A stretch of 24,000 nucleotides of DNA from Desulfobulbaceae bacterium (GCA_024640625.1 JAHEER010000030.1:13373-37372), one strand, 5' to 3'. Positions 7,077 through 18,066 are shown, counted from the stretch's first letter. The notes: generated from the letters alone by a model not told the origin. Made by a program: numbers and translations.

Positions 7077-7114
7077 GCGTGATATGTGTGAAGCGTGGTA
7101 CACGCCATTTTTTT
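7077..7114 (+). terminator. Terminator-like hairpin plus T7 run in the selU leader (possible attenuator)
   Basis: CACGCC (7101-7106) can pair with either GGCGTG (7077-7082) or GCGTG (7093-7097), and is followed by ATTTTTTT (7107-7114). It sits about 40 nt upstream of the selU ATG, and there is no upstream plus-strand gene to terminate. Confidence 0.35.
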
Positions 7115-7155
7115 GCACCCATAGCGAGAGCGAACATCACGGAGCAGAGGTACAG

Positions 7156-8268
7156 ATGTATTCAGATCGACCCACCGCAGCCTTTGAAGAGATCATTGCC
7201 GGCCAGATTCCGCTGCTCGACGTGCGCTCTCCGGTGGAGTTCAAGGCCGGCGCCATCCCCTCTGCGGTGAACATTCCTCTGCTCGACGACGAGGAGCGTC
7301 ACCAGGTCGGTCTCACTTATCGTACACAGGGCAAGGAAGAGGCTTTCAGGGTGGCCCACAACCTGGTGGACGAAGCCAAGCAGCACATGCTCAGCGAGAT
7401 CTGGTGCGCCTACCTGCAGCGCTATCCGGACACCATAGTCTACTGCGCCCGGGGCGGGATGCGATCGGCAACAGCCGCCCGCTGGATATACCAGAGCAGC
7501 AGCACCCAGGTGAGCCGGATAGAGGGCGGTTACAAGGCCATGCGCACCTTTTTGCTGAATCGTCTCGACCCCGCCACCATTACAAGCAGACCGGTGGTTC
7601 TGGGCGGCCGGACGGGGTCGGGAAAAACCCGGCTGCTCAACACCCTGGCCAACTCCATCGATCTTGAAGCCCTGGCCAATCACCGGGGGTCGACCTTCGG
7701 CCGCTTCACCACCCCCCAGCCCGGTCAGGCCGATTTTGAGAACCGGCTCGCGGCAGCCCTGATCAGACACCGCAGTGCCGGCCATTCCCACCTGCTGCTC
7801 GAGGACGAGGGACGGCATGTGGGCAAGCGATTTCTGCCCAAGGAGCTTGCGGAGTTCTTCAATTCCGGCGACCTGGTGGTGGTGGAAATCGATTTCGAAG
7901 AACGGGTTGAAAATATCTTCCAGGAGTATGTGATCGAGGCCCAGAAGCGGAGCGGGGACCTCGCCGGCCAGTCCGATGCGGTCCAGCGGATGTGGCACTG
8001 GTTCCGGGAGATGAGCCGCAACCTGGGGCGCATTGCCAAGCGTCTCGGCACTGACAGGTTCGAAGAAGTGCAGGCGCTGCTCGAATCGGGCTGCTATCAC
8101 CAGGAAAAGAACGGCGATCCACGGGCCCACAAACACTGGATCAGGCTGCTGCTGCGCCACTATTACGATCCGATGTACGACTACCAGCTGCAGAAACGGG
8201 GCAAGGCCCCGGTACTGGCCGGCAGAGAAAGCGTCATCCGCCAATACCTCAGGTCCCTGGGCAACTGA
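7156..8268 (+). CDS. selU: tRNA 2-selenouridine synthase (SelU/MnmH/YbbB)
   Basis: N-terminal rhodanese domain with the active-site context VYCARGGMRS, and P-loop GGRTGSGKT. The GGAGCAGAGG Shine-Dalgarno at 7141-7150 supports the ATG at 7156 (370 aa) rather than the track start at 7084. Confidence 0.85.
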   Translation: MYSDRPTAAFEEIIAGQIPLLDVRSPVEFKAGAIPSAVNIPLLDDEERHQVGLTYRTQGKEEAFRVAHNLVDEAKQHMLSEIWCAYLQRYPDTIVYCARGGMRSATAARWIYQSSSTQVSRIEGGYKAMRTFLLNRLDPATITSRPVVLGGRTGSGKTRLLNTLANSIDLEALANHRGSTFGRFTTPQPGQADFENRLAAALIRHRSAGHSHLLLEDEGRHVGKRFLPKELAEFFNSGDLVVVEIDFEERVENIFQEYVIEAQKRSGDLAGQSDAVQRMWHWFREMSRNLGRIAKRLGTDRFEEVQALLESGCYHQEKNGDPRAHKHWIRLLLRHYYDPMYDYQLQKRGKAPVLAGRESVIRQYLRSLGN

Positions 8269-9379: not shown

Positions 9380-10441
9380 ATGTCCATACTCAAATATTTC
9401 AGAAAACCGACCCTGCAGAACCTGTCGAAGACCTGCGGCTGAGCGGCCAAAGTCGACCCGGTCGGGCTCGGAGCGCTTCTCAACAGTCTTCCCCAGTCGC
9501 AGGATGAAAACCTGCTGGTGGGCTACAACACCAGTGATGACGCGGGGATTTACCGGATCAGCGATGACCTGGCCCTGGTGGCCACGGCCGATTTCATCAC
9601 ACCGCCGGTAAACGATCCTTATGTCTTCGGCCAGATCGCCGCCGCCAACGCCATCAGCGATGTCTATGCCATGGGCGGGGAGCCCAAAGTCTGCCTCAAT
9701 CTGCTCTGCTTCCCCTCGAAAATTTTACCGCACGAGGATCTCGAGCAGATCATTGCCGGCGCCCTGAACAAGATCACCGAAGCCGGCGCGGTGCTGGCCG
9801 GCGGTCACTCGGTGGAGGATGACGAACCAAAGTTCGGCCTGTCGGTGCTCGGCCTGGTCCATCCCGAAAAATTCTGGACCAACACCGGCGCCCGCCAGGG
9901 CGACGCCCTGGTACTGACTAAGCCGCTGGGCAGCGGGGTGCTGTTCAACGCCAACCTGAAGCGTTGGGTGAGCGACTCGGCGATGCAGCGCTGCGTCGAG
10001 GCCCTGATCCACCTGAACAGGGAAGCGGCGGATATCATGAAAAAATATGAGATCCATGCGGTAACCGACGTGACCGGTTTCGGTCTTGGCGGCCACGCTC
10101 TGGAAATGGCCAAGGGTTCCGGGGTGAGGCTGCGGATAAAGATGGACGAGCTGCCCTTGTTCGATGAAGCGCTCGCCATGTATGAAAAGGGCATGAGCAC
10201 CGGGGTCAACCGCCATAATGAAAAATTGATTGGCGCCTACCTGGAGTATGAAAACGAGTTTTCCGCCTCACAGAAAGAAATGATTCTCGATCCACAAACC
10301 AGCGGCGGCCTGCTGGCGGCGCTGCCTGCCGAGCAGGCTGCGGAGCTGGTCAGCGAGCTGCAGCAGGTACCGACCCCGGCGGCGGCAATCATCGGCGAGG
10401 TACTGAGCCGGGACGACAAACCCGGACTCATAATTTCCTGA
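9380..10441 (+). CDS. selD: Selenophosphate synthetase (selenide, water dikinase), selenocysteine-containing form; TGA at 9440-9442 read as Sec
   Basis: The track ORF 9518-10441 has the SelD/PurM-like body but lacks the catalytic N-terminus. Hand translation from the ATG at 9380, in the same frame, gives MSILKYFRKPTLQNLSKTCG-TGA-AAKVDPVGLGALLNSLPQSQDENLLVGYNTSDDAGIY... This places TGA exactly where SelD carries its catalytic Cys/Sec (GxG[C/U]xxK). The total of 353 aa is normal for SelD. Confidence 0.9.
9453..9471 (+). other. SECIS-like hairpin for Sec insertion in selD
   Basis: UCGACCC-GGUC-GGGCUCGG: about 7 bp with one bulged C and a GGUC apical loop, the same loop sequence as I recall for the E. 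coli fdhF SECIS. It begins 10 nt after the UGA, close to the ~11-nt spacing of bacterial SECIS elements. Confidence 0.6.
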
Positions 10442-10475: not shown

Positions 10476-11411
10476 TCACTGCAGTGAACTCTGCCCCCCC
10501 GTCTCTTCACACTCCTCTTCTACAGTGCAGGCATTCTCTTCGCTGGTCAGCGGCAGCGGGTAGTTGCTTGACAGCTGTTCGGAACTCTGCACGCCAACCT
10601 GCGGCAGTGAGGGCCGGCATTGCTGGTCGATATAGGTTTGAATGGCCTTTTCCCCTCGGATCAGCGTCATCGACGCCCCCTCTTGATCGAGCAGCACCGG
10701 CACTTCCAAGATTCCCAGCCTTTTCAGAAACCTCAGGTTGACCTTGGGGCGGTAGCTGGCGACCATCTCGGCGCCGGGATAGGAAAATCCGTCATAGCGG
10801 TCGACCGGATTGAAATCAACGGCACAGGCCGTGCTCTGTTCCAGGCTGGTGAGTACCGCTTGGCAGTGGGGACAGCTCGAAGAGACGAACAGGGTGAAGC
10901 GTTTATTGAAATTATCCGGCTGATAGCGGGCCATGGTCCCCAGTTCCAGCGGCTGCAGCTGCACCGCGCCGCCATGGTAGTCGAGGCTGAAGCTGGCGAT
11001 CATCACCGCCGAGAAAATGAAAATGCCCTTGAACATCTGCTTGAGGCCCAGGCACAGGTTGGCCAGGACGATGAGGGCCAGAATGATCAGGCAATAGGAG
11101 CAAAGCGCCTGGCTGATGATGATCTGAAAGGCCAACAGCACCGCCTCGGCGGCCAGACCTGACAACAGCCACAAACTGGTGAAACGCTCCCAGATGCTGG
11201 AGCCTTTCCGGGCCCGGCTGAGCCCGAGTGCGGCGATCAGGAAATAGAAAAAGCCGGCCAGGTTGAAGTAGAGCGGGTCGACCAGGGTCAACGAATCAAC
11301 GATCTTACAGCCCTCGTTGAAACAGACGCCCTCGCCCTGCAGATAGATGAGCAGACTTTGGGCTCCGGTGATTAGACATCCGATAAGGGCAATGAAAAAA
11401 CCGACAAGCAT
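10476..11411 (-). CDS. VKOR (vitamin K epoxide reductase) family membrane protein fused to a thioredoxin-like domain
   Basis: Loop cysteine pair CFNEGC after TM1. CSYC (CxxC) lies inside a later TM helix. After a fifth TM comes a soluble domain with SSSCPHCQ (thioredoxin-type CxxC). The architecture matches bacterial VKOR-Trx fusions that replace DsbB/DsbA. Confidence 0.75.
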   Translation of the reverse strand: MLVGFFIALIGCLITGAQSLLIYLQGEGVCFNEGCKIVDSLTLVDPLYFNLAGFFYFLIAALGLSRARKGSSIWERFTSLWLLSGLAAEAVLLAFQIIISQALCSYCLIILALIVLANLCLGLKQMFKGIFIFSAVMIASFSLDYHGGAVQLQPLELGTMARYQPDNFNKRFTLFVSSSCPHCQAVLTSLEQSTACAVDFNPVDRYDGFSYPGAEMVASYRPKVNLRFLKRLGILEVPVLLDQEGASMTLIRGEKAIQTYIDQQCRPSLPQVGVQSSEQLSSNYPLPLTSEENACTVEEECEETGGQSSLQ

Positions 11412-11627
11412 GGGGATTATTAAGGGGTTATATTATTGTAATTATTTTTGTCTTTGATGTTTTTTGCTGGTAAAATCAGCGCCGTGTTCCTGTCCGGAGA
11501 TGAAACAGCGGCATAGTGCGGCCACATTGGCTCGTCTAATCTAACTCACCGAAATTAAATTGCCCACTGTTTTGGCACAATTTGTCTGTCTAACCAGGCT
11601 GGAAAGAAGTTTTAAATCCCGGGGATT

Positions 11628-11876
11628 TCAAAGAATCAGTTTCTTGAACACAAAACAGCTGAACAGGTAGGCCACGAGCACTGCCAGGTAGCCGAAATTG
11701 AAGATCAACGGGTTGTCTCTGATCGAGATGCCGCGCAGCCTGGTCGCATAAGATATGAAGGCGCCATACTGAAGGACCAGGGCGAGGAGGAAGAGCGCGG
11801 TATTGCCCCTGACGAATACGAGGACGCCTGCAAACGAGGAAACCACCAGGAAGAGGGTGTCGAAAAATTTTCTCAT
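11628..11876 (-). CDS. Hypothetical small membrane protein (82 aa, about 3 TM)
   Basis: MRKFFDTLFLVVSSFAGVLVFV...LFLLALVLQYGAFISYA...LIFNFGYLAVLVAYLFSCFVF. I prefer the internal ATG at 11876 to the track start at 11960 because the N-terminal 28 codons look non-coding. No family recognised. Confidence 0.45.
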   Translation of the reverse strand: MRKFFDTLFLVVSSFAGVLVFVRGNTALFLLALVLQYGAFISYATRLRGISIRDNPLIFNFGYLAVLVAYLFSCFVFKKLIL

Positions 11877-12016
11877 GTTCGATTCCGGGCGATGGCAGGG
11901 CCAGCGCAGCCAAAATGAATGATACCTGCAATTTTCATCTGCCGGATGATTATAATGCAATTAAATAGTATTGGTTACTGAAAATATTGGTGATAATCTC
12001 TTATTCGTCATTTCCC

Positions 12017-13222
12017 ATGCAGGATCTCTATTATTCGAAAAAATTAGACCAGTATTTTCCCACTCGAGTCGACTACCTGCTCTATGCCCATGACGGCAGA
12101 GGGCTGGGGCATGTGAGCCGGACCACGGCGGTGGGACTGGCTCTGAAGCGGCTTTACCCCGAAGCCCGGATACTGCTCATCACCGGCAGCGCCAAAACCC
12201 ATGTTATGGTTGGCCGCGGCGCGCTCGACTGGATCAAGCTGCCGTCCTATCAGACCGTACTGGCCGCGGGTGCCTCGGAAGGCAGGGACGGCGAGTCGGG
12301 ATTCTACAAATCGGTGCTCGGCAACCTGCGGGCGGAGATGATTGTCAAGATGGTCGAGGTGCTCCGTCCCCGCTGCCTGCTGGTCGACCACAATCCCGTG
12401 GGCAAACGGCAGGAGCTCCTTCCGGCGCTGGAGCAGGGGCTGGTCGCTGACTGTCACTGGGTGCTGGGCCTGCGGGCCATTGTCGGGGAAGACAAGGCAG
12501 TGTGGACCGATGCAACCGCCCGGGTGGTTGAGGATTACTACGGCGAGATTCTCTGGTACGGGGACCGCAGCGTCCTGGGGCCGGCCGCGATGGAGAGGAT
12601 CGGCTCCCATTTCGCCCGATCCCCCGCCGAAATGGGCTATGTCTCACGGGTACGTGAACTGGCCCGGTTTTACGAAGACCAGGCGGAAAATGGGGAACAA
12701 CTCGCCTGCACGGTTTCTCTTCCCTGGTTTGGCCCGCACACCAGGAGCCTTGTCCACAATCTGTATGAAGTTCTCGACCGCCTGGGGGAGCGGCACGGCC
12801 GCAGCCATATTTACGTGGAGCGCAGCCGGGCCCAGGAAGTGGCGGAATTGTTCGACCCGCTGCCCCACTGCCTGGTGGAACCCGTAGGTGACCGTTATAT
12901 CGGTTCGCTGCTCAATTCCAGGGTTGCACTGATCTACGGAGGGTACAACAGTATCCTCGATGTGCTGGCCCTGGCCACACCGGCCCTGGTCGTGCTTCGG
13001 GCAACCCGCGACCGTGAGCAGCAGGTTCATCTCGATCTGCTGCAGCGCTCTGTGGGTGGGGCTCTGCAGGTGGTAGAAGAGGTTGAGGCCACCAGCCGGG
13101 CCCTCGAGGAAGCGCTTCGGCAGCTGTTGGCGGCCGAGCCCGGCAGTTCGCCGCCAATCAACTGCAATGGTGCCGGTAACACCGCCAGACACCTGCATCG
13201 GCTCGTCCAGGAGCAGGGCTGA
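12017..13222 (+). CDS. Glycosyltransferase, GT-B fold (MurG/GT28-C-like, COG4671-like)
   Basis: N-terminal LLYAHDGRGLGHVSRTTAVGLAL...ILLITGS and C-terminal ...LIYGGYNSILDVLALATPALVV are characteristic of MurG-like GT-B enzymes. The start is uncertain (TTG at 11987 or ATG at 12017, neither with a clear Shine-Dalgarno). Confidence 0.65.
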   Translation: MQDLYYSKKLDQYFPTRVDYLLYAHDGRGLGHVSRTTAVGLALKRLYPEARILLITGSAKTHVMVGRGALDWIKLPSYQTVLAAGASEGRDGESGFYKSVLGNLRAEMIVKMVEVLRPRCLLVDHNPVGKRQELLPALEQGLVADCHWVLGLRAIVGEDKAVWTDATARVVEDYYGEILWYGDRSVLGPAAMERIGSHFARSPAEMGYVSRVRELARFYEDQAENGEQLACTVSLPWFGPHTRSLVHNLYEVLDRLGERHGRSHIYVERSRAQEVAELFDPLPHCLVEPVGDRYIGSLLNSRVALIYGGYNSILDVLALATPALVVLRATRDREQQVHLDLLQRSVGGALQVVEEVEATSRALEEALRQLLAAEPGSSPPINCNGAGNTARHLHRLVQEQG

Positions 13223-13267
13223 GCCTGGGCTGCGGAGCGGGGCACAAAAAAATAAATAGGGGAACAG

Positions 13268-13990
13268 ATGGTAGTCAGAATCGTCATTGCATTGTTCATC
13301 TCGCTGGTCTCAGGGGTTGGCTACCTGGCCGGGCTCAGCCGACTGATGAGCGGACTGCTGATCGGCTTTGGGGTAATCTGCGGACTCTTTTTCGGGCTCA
13401 TCTTTCTGCTGCCGCCGGGATCCGAAAAAATCACTTTTGCCGTCAGCGCCCAGGGGGTGTCCTGGCCCTTTTTCCTGGTGGCGCTGATTCTGATCCTGCT
13501 GATCGCTTATCTTTACCTCTATAAACCAAAAAACGGCCACAGACCTGGATTTGAAGCGCTCGGCAACTCTCACCTGCGCCGGCTGGGCTTCGGTCTGGTG
13601 CTCTACCTGGCCAGCCTGTTTCTGCCGGTGCTGCTCTGGTTTCCGTCCGCAAGCACTTTGCAGGCCGGCAAACAGTCGGAACTGGAAATAATGGCCCTGG
13701 TGGGAGTGCTGATCTTCATCGTCGGTATTTCGGCAGCGCTTTATCTGATCTACGGGTCGACCACGGGGGGCACCGAAGATAACCCGGCCCTGATGAGCCG
13801 CATTGTTCCGGCGCTGTTTTCGGTGTTTCACCTCGACAAGCTGCCGGCCCTGGTGGCCTATCTTTTGGTCTACTCGTCGGTACCCGAACTCGTCTTTCCC
13901 AAGATCGCGGCTCTCGCCCTGGCAGGCTATATACCGGTTGCCGTCTTTCTGATCAAACTCGCTTTTGCCGCTGACCAACGCCGAACATGA
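13268..13990 (+). CDS. Hypothetical polytopic membrane protein (about 6-7 TM)
   Basis: 240 aa and strongly hydrophobic throughout, with a GGGGAA Shine-Dalgarno-like sequence before the ATG. No family recognised. The antisense ORF 13310-14131 is low-complexity and was rejected. Confidence 0.6.
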   Translation: MVVRIVIALFISLVSGVGYLAGLSRLMSGLLIGFGVICGLFFGLIFLLPPGSEKITFAVSAQGVSWPFFLVALILILLIAYLYLYKPKNGHRPGFEALGNSHLRRLGFGLVLYLASLFLPVLLWFPSASTLQAGKQSELEIMALVGVLIFIVGISAALYLIYGSTTGGTEDNPALMSRIVPALFSVFHLDKLPALVAYLLVYSSVPELVFPKIAALALAGYIPVAVFLIKLAFAADQRRT

Positions 13991-14078
13991 TCGAGGAGCA
14001 GACCATGCCCCAGATACCTGTGATTGTGCGCGACAACATCGACTGCCCTGGCTCACCGGAACTAGATTTCCGCCTGCT

Positions 14079-14801
14079 ATGTGTACCCTGAGCTGGTGGC
14101 GCACCGAGGAATCCTGGGGTGTCTTTTTCAACCGCGATGAATCGCTCAGAAGAAGCGTGGCCCAGCCGCCCGCGCCCCGCGAGGAGGACGGTGTCGCCTA
14201 CCTCGCACCGCTCGACCCGGACGGCGGCGGCACCTGGATTTTTGTCAACCGGGCGGGCCTTATTGGCTGCCTGCTGAACAACTACCAGGCGCCGTTCAAG
14301 GCGGAGCATCCCATCAGCAGGGGCCTGCTGCTCAGATCGCTGGCCGGCCAGGCAAGCACCGTCGCTGCCGCAGAAGCGGTCGAGGAAGCGGAGCATGCCC
14401 GCTACTCAGGGTTTCATCTCTTCTTTTTCAACGGCGAGACGACTTTGCTCTATAACTGGGACGGCAAGAGGTTGACCCGCCAGAGCGGCAGCGAGCTCTC
14501 CCGGCCGCTCACTAGTTCAGGATTCCGGCCCGAAGAGGTCGCCGCCTACCGGAAAAACAGGTTTTCCCAGCGGGTGCTGCCCGAAGATGCAGCCTTCATT
14601 GACAGGCTCAAAGAATTTCACAGTTTTCACGACGAGCGTTTACCCGCCCATTCGCCCCTGATGGTCAGATCCGAAGCCCGTACCGTGAGCCAGAGCAGGG
14701 TCGCCGTGGATCGCCAACGGGTCAGTTTTGACTACCGGGCGGTGGAGCCACACCGACGAATCCAGCCCGCCATCCTCACCACCCTTGACCGTGACTCCTA
14801 G
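14079..14801 (+). CDS. NRDE-family protein (TANGO2/DUF833-like, Ntn-hydrolase-like N-terminal Cys)
   Basis: Begins MCTLSWW...GVFFNRDE, the Met-Cys N-terminus and NRDE motif that name the family. 240 aa. The ATG at 14079 is preferred over the track start at 13965. Confidence 0.75.
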   Translation: MCTLSWWRTEESWGVFFNRDESLRRSVAQPPAPREEDGVAYLAPLDPDGGGTWIFVNRAGLIGCLLNNYQAPFKAEHPISRGLLLRSLAGQASTVAAAEAVEEAEHARYSGFHLFFFNGETTLLYNWDGKRLTRQSGSELSRPLTSSGFRPEEVAAYRKNRFSQRVLPEDAAFIDRLKEFHSFHDERLPAHSPLMVRSEARTVSQSRVAVDRQRVSFDYRAVEPHRRIQPAILTTLDRDS

Positions 14802-16506
14802 AACATTCTATATCCTCGCCATCCTGCTGATTGTCCTGCCCGCTTCGGGCTGGTGCTCCAGCCAGGGAACGGTAGCGGAGCTGCTCACCGGCTTCGAGCA
14901 GTATGCGGCCCAATCGTCGAGCCGCCTCACCCTGCTCTTCATCATCGCCGCCGCGACCCTGATCAGCGAAGATCTGGCCTGCATTGCCGCCGGGCTGCTG
15001 GCCGCCCGGGCGATCATCAGTCCGCTCGAAGCGGTGGTTGCCAGCGGGCTGGGCATCTACATCGGCGACATCCTGCTCTACTTAACCGGTTATCTGATTG
15101 GTCTCAAGGCCCTGCACCACCCGCCCCTGAAGTGGCTGGTCAGCGAACAGCGGGTCCGCCAGTGCCGGACCTTGTTTGAGAAGCGGGGGCTGGGGCTGAT
15201 CTTCATGAGCCGCTTTCTGCCCGGCACCAGGACGGCCACCTTCCTGGCTGCCGGACTGGTGCGGGTCAATATGGTCAAGCTGCTCGTCGTTTTCGGTCTG
15301 GCCGTACTGATCTGGACGCCTATCCTGGTGCTCTCCGCGGTGTTCATCGGCAAACAGGTGGTGACTTACATAGATGTCTACAGCGGCTGGGCCTTGTGGG
15401 TTTTCCTGGGGCTCATGGCCTTGATTTTCGGGATCACCAGGCTCATCGTACCGCTCTTCACCTGGCGGGGCCGAAGGCTGCTGCTGAGCCGCTGGCGCCG
15501 CCTCTCGAACTGGGAATTCTGGCCCTTTTACGTCACCAACGTGGTCACCTTTTGCTATGTCATCTACGCGGGCATAATAAAGTTTCGCAAGCCCACCCTG
15601 TTCACCGTCACCAACCCGGCCATCAGGCCGGACAGCGGTTTTATCGGGGAATCCAAGTCGGATATCCTCCAAGGGCTCGACCAGGACTATGTGGGCCGCT
15701 GGCGGCTGGTGGCCGGGGAAACCGGGCGTGAGGAAAAAATGGCGCTGCTCACCACCTTCATGGCCGAGGAACATCTCGATTTTCCGATCGTGCTCAAACC
15801 CGACGTCGGGCAGCGCGGCCAGGGCGTCAAGATCTGCGCTGATCTTGACGAGGCCCGCGCATGGCTGGAAGAAATACAGTGGGATTACCTGATGATGGAA
15901 TACCTGCCGGGCGAGGAGTTCGGGGTGTTCTACTATCGTCTCCCGGATCAGCCGCGGGGCCGTATTTTCTCCATCAACCGCAAGAAGCTCCTACAGGTCG
16001 AGGGCGATGACCACTCCACTCTGGAGGAGCTGATCCTCAAGGATGACCGGGCGCTTTGCCTGGCCCCGATGTTTTTCAAGAACCTTGAGCCCCAACTGCT
16101 GGACATCATACCAGCCGGGGAGTCCAGGCAGCTCAGCCAGGTCGGCACCCACAGCCTGGGGGCGCTGTTTCTTAACGGCGCCGATTTGATCAGCCCCGAA
16201 CTGCTCGACGGGCTCGAACCCATTATTAAAGAGTACCGGGGCTTTTATTTCGGCCGCTTCGACCTCAAGGTCCCCTCCGAAGAAGACCTCAAGGCCGGAC
16301 GCAACCTGAAGGTGATCGAACTCAACGGCCTGACTTCCGAGGCCACCCATATATACGACCCGCAGAACTCCATCTTGTACGCCTGGAAGACGCTGATCAC
16401 TCAGTGGTCGATCGCTTTTGAGATTGCTCAGGCCAACCTGAAAAAAGGCGCGCAGCCCATGGCCCTGGGTGACTTCATCCGTCACTGGCGACGGGGCGGA
16501 AATTGA
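14791..16506 (+). CDS. Fusion protein: DedA/VTT (SNARE-associated) membrane domain plus C-terminal ATP-grasp ligase domain
   Basis: N-terminal half: ...LISEDLACIAAGLLAA...GIYIGDILLYLTGYLIG...FMSRFLPGTRTATFLAAGL... (VTT/DedA motifs), then two more TM helices. C-terminal ~270 aa: ...FPIVLKPDVGQRGQGV...MMEYLPGEEFGVFYYR...VEGDDHSTLEELI...GRFDLKV...VIELNGLTSEATHIYDP (ATP-grasp pattern). There is no ATG near the 5' end. Candidate starts are GTG 14791, TTG 14785 or TTG 14728, and all overlap the NRDE gene's 3' end. Confidence 0.7.
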   Translation: MTPRTFYILAILLIVLPASGWCSSQGTVAELLTGFEQYAAQSSSRLTLLFIIAAATLISEDLACIAAGLLAARAIISPLEAVVASGLGIYIGDILLYLTGYLIGLKALHHPPLKWLVSEQRVRQCRTLFEKRGLGLIFMSRFLPGTRTATFLAAGLVRVNMVKLLVVFGLAVLIWTPILVLSAVFIGKQVVTYIDVYSGWALWVFLGLMALIFGITRLIVPLFTWRGRRLLLSRWRRLSNWEFWPFYVTNVVTFCYVIYAGIIKFRKPTLFTVTNPAIRPDSGFIGESKSDILQGLDQDYVGRWRLVAGETGREEKMALLTTFMAEEHLDFPIVLKPDVGQRGQGVKICADLDEARAWLEEIQWDYLMMEYLPGEEFGVFYYRLPDQPRGRIFSINRKKLLQVEGDDHSTLEELILKDDRALCLAPMFFKNLEPQLLDIIPAGESRQLSQVGTHSLGALFLNGADLISPELLDGLEPIIKEYRGFYFGRFDLKVPSEEDLKAGRNLKVIELNGLTSEATHIYDPQNSILYAWKTLITQWSIAFEIAQANLKKGAQPMALGDFIRHWRRGGN

Positions 16507-16514
16507 GAAATAAT

Positions 16515-16573
16515 GGGGACACAATACCCAAGGTGTCCCCAAACCCAAGGGACACCTTGGGTATTGTGTCCCC
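16515..16573. terminator. 25-bp perfect inverted repeat between convergent genes (bidirectional terminator candidate with nested palindromes)
   Basis: GGGGACACAATACCCAAGGTGTCCC (16515-16539), 9-nt loop, GGGACACCTTGGGTATTGTGTCCCC (16549-16573). Each arm is itself a hairpin (GGGACAC...GTGTCCC). T-rich sequence follows only in the minus-strand direction (ATTATTTCT). Confidence 0.65.
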
Positions 16574-16574
16574 C

Positions 16575-17837
16575 CTACTCATCTCTGACCCGGGTAAGCA
16601 ACCAGGCGCCGATTACGAACAGAAAGAGAATGGAGAGCACGCCCCACCTGGTGTCGCCGGTCATCCTGCCGACGATGCCCAGCAGCGCCGGACCGGCGAT
16701 GGCGGCGAATTTTCCCGAGACATTGTAGAAGCCGAAAAACTCGGCGCTGTTTTCGGGCGGGATCAGTTTTGAGAAATAACTCCTGCTCAGGGCCTGGATG
16801 CCGCCCATGGAGGAGGCGACCAGCAGGGCGATGGCCCAGAACAGCGTGTGTCGAACCAGGTGGCCCTCGAGAAAGGGCAGCAGAAAGGCCAGGAACGTGA
16901 TCAGGCAGTAGACGGCGATGCCGGCAAACAGCAGCGTCCTGGTCTCGAACCGGGCGGCAAGCCGCCCATAGAGCAATGTGCAGGGGAAGGCGACGATCTG
17001 GATGACCAGCAGCACGGTGATCAGCATGGTGATGCCGAAGCCCAGGTCGCGGCCGTAGGCGGTGGACATGGTAATGATGGTGCCGACCCCGTCGATGTAG
17101 AAAAAGTAGGCGGCTAGAAAGAGAAAGACGGAGCGGTGGCGCCTGATATTCTTGAAGGTCGTCCAGAGCCGCACGAAGCCGTCGGCAAAAGGGCTGGGTG
17201 ACGGCGGTACGAAGTGGTGTTGTTTTAGATTCTTAATGGCCGGCAGGGAAAGGCAGAACCACCACAGGACGACGACCACAAAGCCCATCCTGGTCCGGCC
17301 TGCAGGCAGGCCGTCGCCGAGGCCGCCGCTGACGATCAGGGCAATGACCGCCAGGAAGGGGATGATGCTGCCGATATAGCCGATGCCGAACCCCTTGGCC
17401 GAGACGCTGTCCATGCGTTCGGGGGCGGCGACGTCGACCAGGAAGGCGTCATAGAAAAGATTGGCCCCGGCCCAGCCAACCCGGGCGCCGATGAACAGCA
17501 GCAGGCAGAGCAGCCACTGACCCTCGAGGGGGATGGTCAGCGCCACGGTGAAAACCAGGCCGGTGATCAAAAAGAAGAGAAAATAGGGCTTCTTGCGGTC
17601 CTTGTAGTCGGCCATGGTACCCAGCACCGGGGCCAGCAGGGCGAGGATCAGCGAGGCGGTGGAATTGGCGAAGGCCCAGTTCGAGGTGGCCACCGCATCG
17701 GCGAGGCCGCTGGCGGCTACGTCCTTGAAATAAATGGGCATGATGGCGGTGATCATGACCAGCACGAAGGCCGAATTGGCCGCGTCGTAAAGGACCCAGC
17801 TCTTTTCTTCCCTGGACAGGGGGGCGCGCTCAGTCAT
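16575..17837 (-). CDS. MFS transporter, UMF1/Atg22-like family
   Basis: 420 aa, about 12 TM. The N-terminus EEKSWVLYDAANSAFVLVMITAIMPIYFKDV resembles the UMF1 (Atg22-like) family. Confidence 0.8.
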   Translation of the reverse strand: MTERAPLSREEKSWVLYDAANSAFVLVMITAIMPIYFKDVAASGLADAVATSNWAFANSTASLILALLAPVLGTMADYKDRKKPYFLFFLITGLVFTVALTIPLEGQWLLCLLLFIGARVGWAGANLFYDAFLVDVAAPERMDSVSAKGFGIGYIGSIIPFLAVIALIVSGGLGDGLPAGRTRMGFVVVVLWWFCLSLPAIKNLKQHHFVPPSPSPFADGFVRLWTTFKNIRRHRSVFLFLAAYFFYIDGVGTIITMSTAYGRDLGFGITMLITVLLVIQIVAFPCTLLYGRLAARFETRTLLFAGIAVYCLITFLAFLLPFLEGHLVRHTLFWAIALLVASSMGGIQALSRSYFSKLIPPENSAEFFGFYNVSGKFAAIAGPALLGIVGRMTGDTRWGVLSILFLFVIGAWLLTRVRDE

Positions 17838-18066
17838 CTCGGGAGAAAAGCTTTACCAGGACGACTGCGCAGATGAAGAAAAACAGCGCGTAAAGGGCGT
17901 AGCCCGACAGCCTGACGGCGGCGGCCGAAAAACCCAGTGACAGGGCAAAGTTGTTGACAATGTCGAAGCCGCTCCGGCCAACGATGTAGAGCAGTAAAAG
18001 AAAGCCCACGTAGAACGGGGCTTTAAGCAGCGAGACCAGCGATGAATATCGTTTTTGTGCGCTCAT
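17830..18066 (-). CDS. Hypothetical small membrane protein (78 aa, 2 TM), overlaps the MFS start by 8 nt
   Basis: Two hydrophobic helices, and the stop overlaps the MFS ATG region, which suggests translational coupling. No family recognised. Confidence 0.45.
   Translation of the reverse strand: MSAQKRYSSLVSLLKAPFYVGFLLLLYIVGRSGFDIVNNFALSLGFSAAAVRLSGYALYALFFFICAVVLVKLFSRDD

Follow-up and report, generated by a model that had tools for sequence, protein, structure and literature searches.

What do a glycosyltransferase-like protein, two membrane proteins, a TANGO2/NRDE protein and a DedA domain fused to an ATP-grasp domain do together when their genes lie side by side? The question is raised by a 24,000-nt stretch of DNA from a Desulfobulbaceae bacterium (GCA_024640625.1, JAHEER010000030.1:13373-37372), hereafter the window, in which positions 11628–16506 hold five such genes that a first-pass annotation had read as one unit for the synthesis or remodelling of an envelope glycolipid or related molecule. 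The window DNA is classed as Desulfofustis-like, within the Desulfocapsaceae, and its closest relative is a Desulfofustis sp. metagenome-assembled genome (MAG; locus L005) at 94–96% nucleotide identity. We find that the tango2 gene and the gene for the DedA–ATP-grasp fusion co-travel across many phyla, and consider it rather probable, though far from certain, that in the window they represent, in reduced form, a widespread operon that has not been described before and that serves the modification of aminolipid head groups. The full operon has the order olsB-olsA-dinB-tango2-(α/β-hydrolase)-dedA-ATP-grasp; the window copy lacks dinB, the α/β-hydrolase domain and an adjacent synthase gene.

Neighbours of the fusion gene across phyla

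An alignment of fusion homologues was searched against one genome per species, and 80 loci were kept together with two metagenome loci; the proteins of the window were compared with these 82 loci by tblastn, and two further Desulfocapsaceae loci (L083 and L088) were found later. Relatives of the fusion occur in at least 588 species, in taxa including Desulfobacterota, Verrucomicrobiota, Balneolaceae/Rhodothermales, Acidobacteriota, Gemmatimonadota, Planctomycetota, Calditrichota, KSB1 and Latescibacterota. De novo clustering of the open reading frames (ORFs) around 80 anchor fusions returned, as the top four neighbour families, a DinB_2 protein (PF12867, ~180 aa), TANGO2, a PF01553 acyltransferase and a PF13444 GNAT protein, all encoded 5′ of the fusion and in its orientation. 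The best NCBIfam match of the acyltransferase was the lyso-ornithine-lipid O-acyltransferase OlsA (6e-38) and that of the GNAT protein was the ornithine N-acyltransferase OlsB (1.5e-37). At five loci from Desulfobacterales and Verrucomicrobiota (L011, L013, L017, L036 and L047) the fusion adjoins an OlsF-like bifunctional synthase (E 1e-112 to 1e-126), so that the association extends to both synthase architectures.

Counts based on hidden Markov models were made at the 52 loci outside the Desulfocapsaceae that had at least 4.5 kb of upstream sequence (hereafter distant loci). Aminolipid synthase genes, whether olsB/olsA-like or olsF-like, were present at 37 of the 52, DinB_2 genes, the most frequent neighbours of the fusion, at 40, and tango2 at 24, with at least one of synthase, dinB and tango2 at 50. 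The typical arrangement is olsB-olsA-dinB-tango2-fusion with 4-nt overlaps, which at one locus (L031) run throughout from olsA to the fusion. Because ols homologues flank the fusion at 37 of these 52 loci, acyloxyacyl aminolipid (ornithine-lipid-type) metabolism becomes a strong candidate for the pathway that the first-pass annotation had been unable to name.

Among all 82 loci, tango2 was found at 35, across phyla and always upstream of the fusion on the same strand, so that the gene-neighbourhood comparison proposed at first pass did recover a co-travelling pair. The association was also examined from the other side, by searching metagenome contigs with an alignment of five TANGO2 sequences from several phyla: of the loci returned, 35 had sufficient flanking sequence, and these carried the fusion in 26 cases, dinB in 28 and a synthase gene in 27, counts that describe the operon-linked TANGO2 subfamily from which the search patterns were drawn and not all bacterial TANGO2 proteins. 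In five metagenome loci (L096, L097, L138, L140 and L145) dinB-tango2 is joined to olsB or olsA with no fusion nearby, and the link between TANGO2 and aminolipid genes is thus independent of the fusion. In the literature we found no description of a DedA–ATP-grasp fusion, nor of a TANGO2 subfamily set in aminolipid operons.

Two further proteins recur around these operons. Loci of the Acidobacteriota type often encode, 3′ of the fusion, a lipoprotein-like protein of ~230–250 aa with a weak M48 peptidase motif (HELxH), and a DoxX-family membrane protein often lies beside the aminolipid operon; the loci concerned are L025, L031, L033, L037, L050, L066, L071 and L079 (downstream of the fusion), and L022, L049, L057, L072, L080 and L082. 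Both proteins are possible accessory members of the aminolipid module.

The fusion and TANGO2 proteins

The fusion is encoded on the plus strand at 14785–16506, within an ORF that opens at 14728, and the domain composition given to it at first pass holds for both halves. Its VTT/DedA part (~14989–15333, plus strand) scores 50.1 bits against PF09335, above the cut-off of 33.9, and keeps an acidic pair (E81/D82) and an R162-F-x-P-G-x-R168 motif, of which E81, D82, R162 and R168 are invariant over 13 diverse homologues. The DedA family comprises lipid transporters and scramblases, and the domain shares the acidic pair and the arginine motif with them (UptA and PetA, and the eukaryotic VMP1/TMEM41B); the known members differ in being stand-alone proteins of ~200 aa that are not fused to enzymes. 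The equivalog cut-offs of UptA (NF052604; 44.2 vs 250 bits, E 2e-11) and DedA (20 vs 236 bits) were not reached by the window protein, and the DedA part of a homologue (P0116) matched UptA at 5e-16 with 59 of the 250 bits.

The C-terminal part (~15595–16503, plus strand) gave by sequence only weak RimK, cyanophycin-synthetase and Ddl matches: no Pfam ATP-grasp family matched the window protein at E ≤ 0.01, PF08443 (RimK) was matched by some of its homologues, and the specific families tried (cyanophycin synthetase, RimK, Ddl and glutathione synthetase) scored 15–22 bits against cut-offs of 143–877. Structural modelling confirmed an ATP-grasp fold for this domain. The AlphaFold2 model has a mean predicted local distance difference test score (pLDDT) of 82, a value that rises to at least 90 in most of the 10-residue blocks that make up the ATP-grasp part, and Foldseek aligned it with probability 1.0 over ~280 columns to GshF (3ln6), CphA2 (7ta5), CphA1 (7wae and 7lgj) and Ddl, at 11–20% identity; a profile of the fusion family searched against the PDB also reached CphA2 (7ta5) at 7.8e-7. 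Residues K357, D359, R363, E397, R510, D512, E531 and N533, which include the R-x-D and E-x-N pairs, are invariant in the family and kept in the window, and a V-x-GDG-x-STL-x-ELI stretch aligns with cyanophycin synthetases. GshF, CphA1/CphA2 and Ddl each join an amino-acid amine to the carboxylate of an amino acid or peptide. The domain thus resembles the ATP-grasp ligases (GshF, the G domain of CphA1/CphA2, Ddl and RimK) in fold, in its best structure and sequence matches and in the conserved K, E, R-x-D and E-x-N; it differs from them in its low identity and in that members of the fusion clade usually sit at the C-terminus of a DedA membrane protein, as none of the known families does.

Of the 80 anchor fusions, 50 are ~800–900 aa long and carry an N-terminal α/β-hydrolase domain that the window protein, unlike most family members, lacks. 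Searched alone, the ATP-grasp domain returned 950 clusters (50% identity) at E ≤ 1e-30; among the best 150 of these, most have a C-terminal ATP-grasp domain in proteins of ~510–620 or 800–900 aa, sizes that would fit the DedA and the α/β-hydrolase-DedA architectures, and about one-fifth are shorter, possibly as fragments or stand-alone proteins. Homologues begin ~21 residues after the start of the window ORF, and translation therefore probably starts at TTG 14785 or GTG 14791. The overlap with tango2 (stop codon 14799–14801) seen at first pass is present, but probably spans 11–17 nt and not the 74 nt given by the ORF.

The TANGO2/NRDE protein (14079–14801, plus strand, 240 aa), predicted to be an N-terminal nucleophile enzyme acting through cysteine (Cys-Ntn), matches PF05742 at 48.3 bits (cut-off 22.6, E 2e-12) and carries Cys2 in the N-terminal MCTLSWW as well as FFNRDE, features consistent with the N-terminal-Cys enzyme suggested at first pass. 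Among operon-linked homologues the MC start and NRDE occur in 32/32 and PF05742 is matched by all 14 that were aligned; C2, N18, R19, D20 and E21 are invariant in the homologue alignment and all are kept in the window protein. A profile of 14 sequences recovered the human TANGO2 structures 8sv7 and 9bwa from the PDB (E 6.5e-8) with the NRDE region aligned; the window protein alone found no match there by phmmer, and confident alignment to human TANGO2 is limited to approximately the first 125 residues. The likeness to the TANGO2/NRDE family and Cys-Ntn amidases thus lies in Pfam membership, Cys2, NRDE and the profile match. No member of the TANGO2 family has an established substrate; in its crystal structure the human protein has an active site that resembles those of acid ceramidase, NAAA and bile-salt hydrolase, which points to a Cys-Ntn hydrolase with fatty-acid derivatives as substrates (PMC13044924).

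Domain identities, intact catalytic motifs, the gene overlap and cross-phylum co-localisation with synthase genes are observed; for substrate and chemistry we infer the following course. An ornithine-lipid-type acyloxyacyl amino-acid lipid would first be produced by OlsBA or OlsF, encoded elsewhere in the genome; since OlsF homologues are reported to be common among Desulfobulbales (PMC12971839), this substrate could come from genes that lie outside the window in the source genome. The DedA/VTT domain would bind or flip this lipid in such a way that the head group reaches the ATP-grasp domain in the cytoplasm; the latter would form an acyl-phosphate from ATP and then an amide on the head group, most likely between the free α-carboxylate of the lipid and an amine or amino acid, or alternatively between a soluble carboxylate and the lipid amine. 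TANGO2 would cleave or transfer a fatty amide or head-group amide on the same lipid, thereby removing or remodelling the modification; an N-acyl amide or the new head-group amide of an aminolipid would be a natural substrate class for an enzyme with an active site of the kind seen in human TANGO2. The α/β-hydrolase of other phyla may likewise serve as an amidase or transferase partner, and DinB_2 is given no role in this scheme.

In design, such a protein would be analogous to MprF, in which a lipid-translocating polytopic domain is fused to a cytoplasmic head-group modifier that is often paired with a reversing aminoacyl-phosphatidylglycerol hydrolase, a role that the α/β-hydrolase of the fusion and/or TANGO2 would take here. 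The two have no sequence relationship, and MprF differs further in using aminoacyl-tRNA and not an ATP-grasp domain, in a membrane domain that is not of the DedA/VTT type and in its phospholipid substrate. Relatives of the core genes share operons with ols-like genes in many phyla, which ties them to the ornithine-lipid pathways (OlsB-OlsA or OlsF, the OlsC/D/E hydroxylases, the OlsG methyltransferase and the cerilipin taurine transferase); none of the described aminolipid modifiers, however, is an ATP-grasp protein, a DedA fusion, a DinB protein or a TANGO2 protein. Acyloxyacyl aminolipids bear a free carboxylate of just the kind that the nearest solved ATP-grasp enzymes use. A biochemical precedent is cerilipin, where ATP-dependent transfer of taurine forms an amide on the ornithine-lipid carboxyl by an activity to which no gene has been assigned (PMC12971839).

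Ornithine lipids and other aminolipids are membrane lipids without phosphorus that are widespread. The amidation of their head-group carboxyl lacks an assigned gene (PMC12971839); a membrane-tethered ATP-grasp family in olsBA and olsF operons is a concrete gene candidate for this decades-old orphan activity. As a tentative and more specific proposal, to which we give distinctly less weight than to the module itself, the DedA–ATP-grasp proteins may be the missing ATP-dependent aminolipid head-group ligases, performing cerilipin-like amidation in an MprF-like manner, with co-operonic TANGO2 as an amidase or transacylase on N-acyl amino-acid lipids. The function of TANGO2 is contested between haem trafficking, acyl-CoA binding and Cys-Ntn hydrolysis, and the operon setting makes an action on N-acyl amino-acid or fatty-amide lipids testable in bacteria; if true, this would be the first pointer from genomic context to the native substrate class of a family to which the protein behind TANGO2 deficiency disorder in humans belongs. 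An enzyme-fused DedA domain would likewise be a new architecture in a family whose transport role is only recently being defined. Overall, the genomic evidence looks like an undescribed aminolipid modification module with new enzymology.

Lineage-specific genes and rival explanations

All five ORFs of the first-pass annotation were recovered with their strands, the gaps of 45 and 88 nt and the overlap that follows, and all have conserved homologues, so that they are real genes. Its domain calls were borne out for TANGO2/NRDE, VTT/DedA and ATP-grasp; that of a glycosyltransferase is only plausible, and the two other membrane proteins match no family. The predicted GT-B glycosyltransferase (GT; GT28/GT1-like, 'COG4671-type'; 12017–13222, plus strand, 401 aa) matched no Pfam or NCBIfam model itself, PF04101 was matched by 12 of its 19 homologues (best 1e-8), several of which are labelled 'predicted glycosyltransferase' by JGI, and its profile gave a weak match in the PDB to the GT1 enzyme YjiC (E 0.07). 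Two of the homologues (P0165 and P0179, ~665 aa) are fused to a class I S-adenosylmethionine-dependent methyltransferase domain (PF13847, PF08241). The polytopic membrane protein mem240 (13268–13990, plus strand, 240 aa, ~7 helices) matched no curated family in Pfam or NCBIfam; a sub-threshold Pfam match to FixQ (22.7 vs 29 bits) was rejected as spurious. Comparison of predicted structures, which had been proposed at first pass for each product and which yielded the ATP-grasp fold for the fusion, found no PDB fold for mem240 (pLDDT 83.6; best E 0.19). Only 106 homologues of mem240 were found, and those with named sources are all from Desulfobulbales. The divergently transcribed 82-aa predicted membrane protein (11628–11876, minus strand) likewise matched no family.

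These three genes follow the lineage and not the fusion. The GT gene was found at 4 of the 82 loci and at L083, and together with the fusion and/or tango2 at six loci only (the window, L001, L003, L004, L005 and L083); it was not detected at L002, L006–L010 or L088, nor at any of 72 fusion loci outside the Desulfocapsaceae. The 82-aa gene was found at 2 of the 82 loci and at L083, and overall at four loci only (the window, L003, L005 and L083), with 70–100% amino acid identity and always beside the GT gene, and among the 82 loci mem240 was confined, as were the VKOR-like and MFS neighbours described below, to the 9–10 from Desulfocapsaceae. One locus (L003) carries the 82-aa gene, GT, mem240, dinB, tango2 and the fusion; L001 lacks only the 82-aa gene, and L004 both this and dinB. 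At L006–L009 mem240, tango2 and the fusion are present without the other three, and at L002, L010 and L088 mem240 and the fusion alone; L083 has the 82-aa gene, GT, mem240 and tango2 but neither dinB nor the fusion. By this comparison the Desulfocapsaceae cluster is a mosaic of genes gained and lost semi-independently. Outside it, GT homologues of ~45% identity have other, unrelated genes around them (L084, L085), mem240 homologues of 43–45% identity are unlinked to any other cluster gene (L086, L087), and in one 5.56-Mb genome homologues of the two lie ~600 kb apart. Scattered orthologues, which the first-pass annotation had named as the finding that would count against a single system, are thus seen for GT, mem240 and the 82-aa protein, and not for TANGO2 and the fusion; on gene distribution the three are lineage-specific neighbours and not demonstrated members of the module.

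The 88-nt gap between mem240 and tango2 has the length given at first pass, but is no plain spacer: it holds the remnant of a DinB_2 gene (13987–14066, plus strand), recognised by comparison with the DinB of L003 and L005, from which ~465 nt are gone relative to the intact 183-aa DinB of L003. The first 20 codons (MIEEQTMPQIPVIVRDNIDC), from 13987, match the N-terminus of the L003 protein, and their ATG overlaps the mem240 stop codon as ATGA; the last six codons (..ALAHRN*) are kept in a different frame and match the DinB C-terminus. The scar sits exactly where relatives carry dinB, and by comparison with these the window is a reduced form of an ancestral clade order mem240-dinB-tango2-fusion. 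The sister MAG (L005) keeps a larger, partial dinB remnant, and lacks both window positions 14016–14750, the body of tango2 (at L005:9857–10023), and positions 16037–16272, a 236-nt frameshifting deletion within the ATP-grasp domain (L005 ~11308). These deletions are either real decay of the pair or MAG assembly artefacts.

Several points weigh against a module for aminolipid modification. The olsB/olsA-like neighbours score ~130 bits against NCBIfam equivalog cut-offs of 300–350, scores that do not fix the amino acid used; no aminolipid synthase gene was found in the 24-kb window or at any of the 10 Desulfocapsaceae loci counted, and none was called at L083 or L088, so that for the source genome the link rests on homology (43–47% identity) to operon-embedded relatives. 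No member of the family is characterised, and the substrate, nucleophile and reaction direction given above for TANGO2 are putative. Neither TANGO2 nor the fusion is an obligate partner of the other, as about half of the loci with the fusion have no TANGO2 and L083 has no fusion. The scar of dinB and the L005 deletions could mean that the module is decaying in this lineage, and UptA, as the best if weak NCBIfam match of the DedA part, leaves other lipids open.

The last of these points leads to an explanation that we hold unlikely, in which the fusion acts on another lipid (phosphatidylethanolamine, phosphatidylserine, phosphatidylglycerol or a polyprenyl-phosphate-linked lipid) and its proximity to olsBA reflects a shared membrane-remodelling regulon. 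The UptA matches of the window protein and P0116 speak for it, as do the inclusion of Ddl and archaeal pseudomurein ligase among the ATP-grasp relatives and the lack of an adjacent synthase gene at ~29% of the well-flanked distant loci and all Desulfocapsaceae loci; yet scores of 44 and 59 bits are far below the UptA cut-off of 250, neither peptidoglycan nor phospholipid genes recurred among the neighbours when these were clustered, and olsB-olsA-dinB-tango2-fusion operons with 4-nt overlaps in many phyla, with synthases of both the OlsBA and the OlsF type, are a stronger association than regulon-level linkage. Less plausible still is the single five-gene envelope system for a glycolipid or glycoconjugate, in which the GT would make a glycosyl or glycuronosyl lipid, the ATP-grasp domain would amidate it or decorate it with peptide, and mem240 and the 82-aa protein would be membrane partners. 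ATP-grasp amidoligases that act on uronic-acid carboxylates do exist (Campylobacter Cj1438), the gaps between GT, mem240, tango2 and the fusion on one strand are short, GT and mem240 adjoin tango2 or the fusion at six loci, and the ATGA overlap of the mem240 stop with the ancestral dinB start suggests that mem240 was co-transcribed with the module in this clade. Against this stand the absence of GT from most Desulfocapsaceae fusion loci and from all 72 outside that family, the unrelated settings of the GT and mem240 homologues, and the fact that no sugar-nucleotide or uronate genes were found nearby in the window; the adjacency is confined to close relatives, so that shared ancestry (synteny) explains it. 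Of the envelope-remodelling idea, the lipid function combining an ATP-grasp ligase, an N-terminal-Cys enzyme and a DedA domain is supported; there is no indication that the product is a glycolipid or glycoconjugate.

Equally improbable is an explanation by decay, in which the block in the source genome would be a remnant that now has little function or none. The reduction of dinB to a scar, the losses in a relative as close as L005 and the patchy presence of the genes across Desulfocapsaceae are what such decay would leave; the tango2 and fusion genes of the window are nevertheless full-length ORFs with every residue that is invariant in the family, assembly artefacts may account for the L005 deletions, and intact loci elsewhere also lack an adjacent dinB (L004, L006–L009 and 12 of the 52 distant loci). 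That TANGO2 is a haem-trafficking protein for cytochrome c maturation, like Shewanella HtpA, and unrelated to the fusion, we regard as highly improbable. Desulfobulbales are rich in multihaem cytochromes. Bacterial TANGO2 homologues have been reported as haem-trafficking proteins (PMC10470608), but this role is disputed (eLife 2026, PMC12782551), the work on the human crystal structure shows only non-specific haem binding (PMC13044924), and the subfamily considered here is embedded in aminolipid operons, with a gene that overlaps the fusion and with no recurrent ccm or haem genes near the 80 anchors in the neighbour clustering.

Other genes of the window

A promoter and terminator scan of 11300–16800 gave counts not above those of shuffled sequence and is uninformative on operon structure, and no Rfam family was matched anywhere in the window at gathering thresholds. 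Upstream of the cluster, 10476–11411 (minus strand) encodes a 311-aa membrane protein with a weak VKOR match (NF011478, E 6e-4) and, by eye, a C-terminal CPHC motif that suggests a thioredoxin-like domain; this gene lies beside the cluster in all Desulfocapsaceae loci and not elsewhere. Convergent to the fusion, 16575–17837 (minus strand) encodes an ATG22-like transporter of the major facilitator superfamily (MFS) and overlaps the gene of a 78-aa membrane protein (17830–18066, minus strand) that was detected in some Desulfocapsaceae loci only. The MFS gene is syntenic in every Desulfocapsaceae locus examined, including L083, where there is no fusion, and its link to the fusion is therefore probably one of synteny only.

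Elsewhere in the window, a rhodanese and AAA gene of the tRNA 2-selenouridine synthase (SelU) type (7084–8268) lies near selD, the gene for selenophosphate synthetase, whose ORF, listed from 9518, had been shortened by the ORF finder and spans ~9380–10441 (plus strand). Upstream in frame it reads MSILKYF...SKTCG*AAKVDP, with an in-frame TGA at ~9440–9442 that falls at the expected active-site Cys/Sec of the G-[C/U]-x-x-K motif; SelD is therefore probably itself a selenoprotein.

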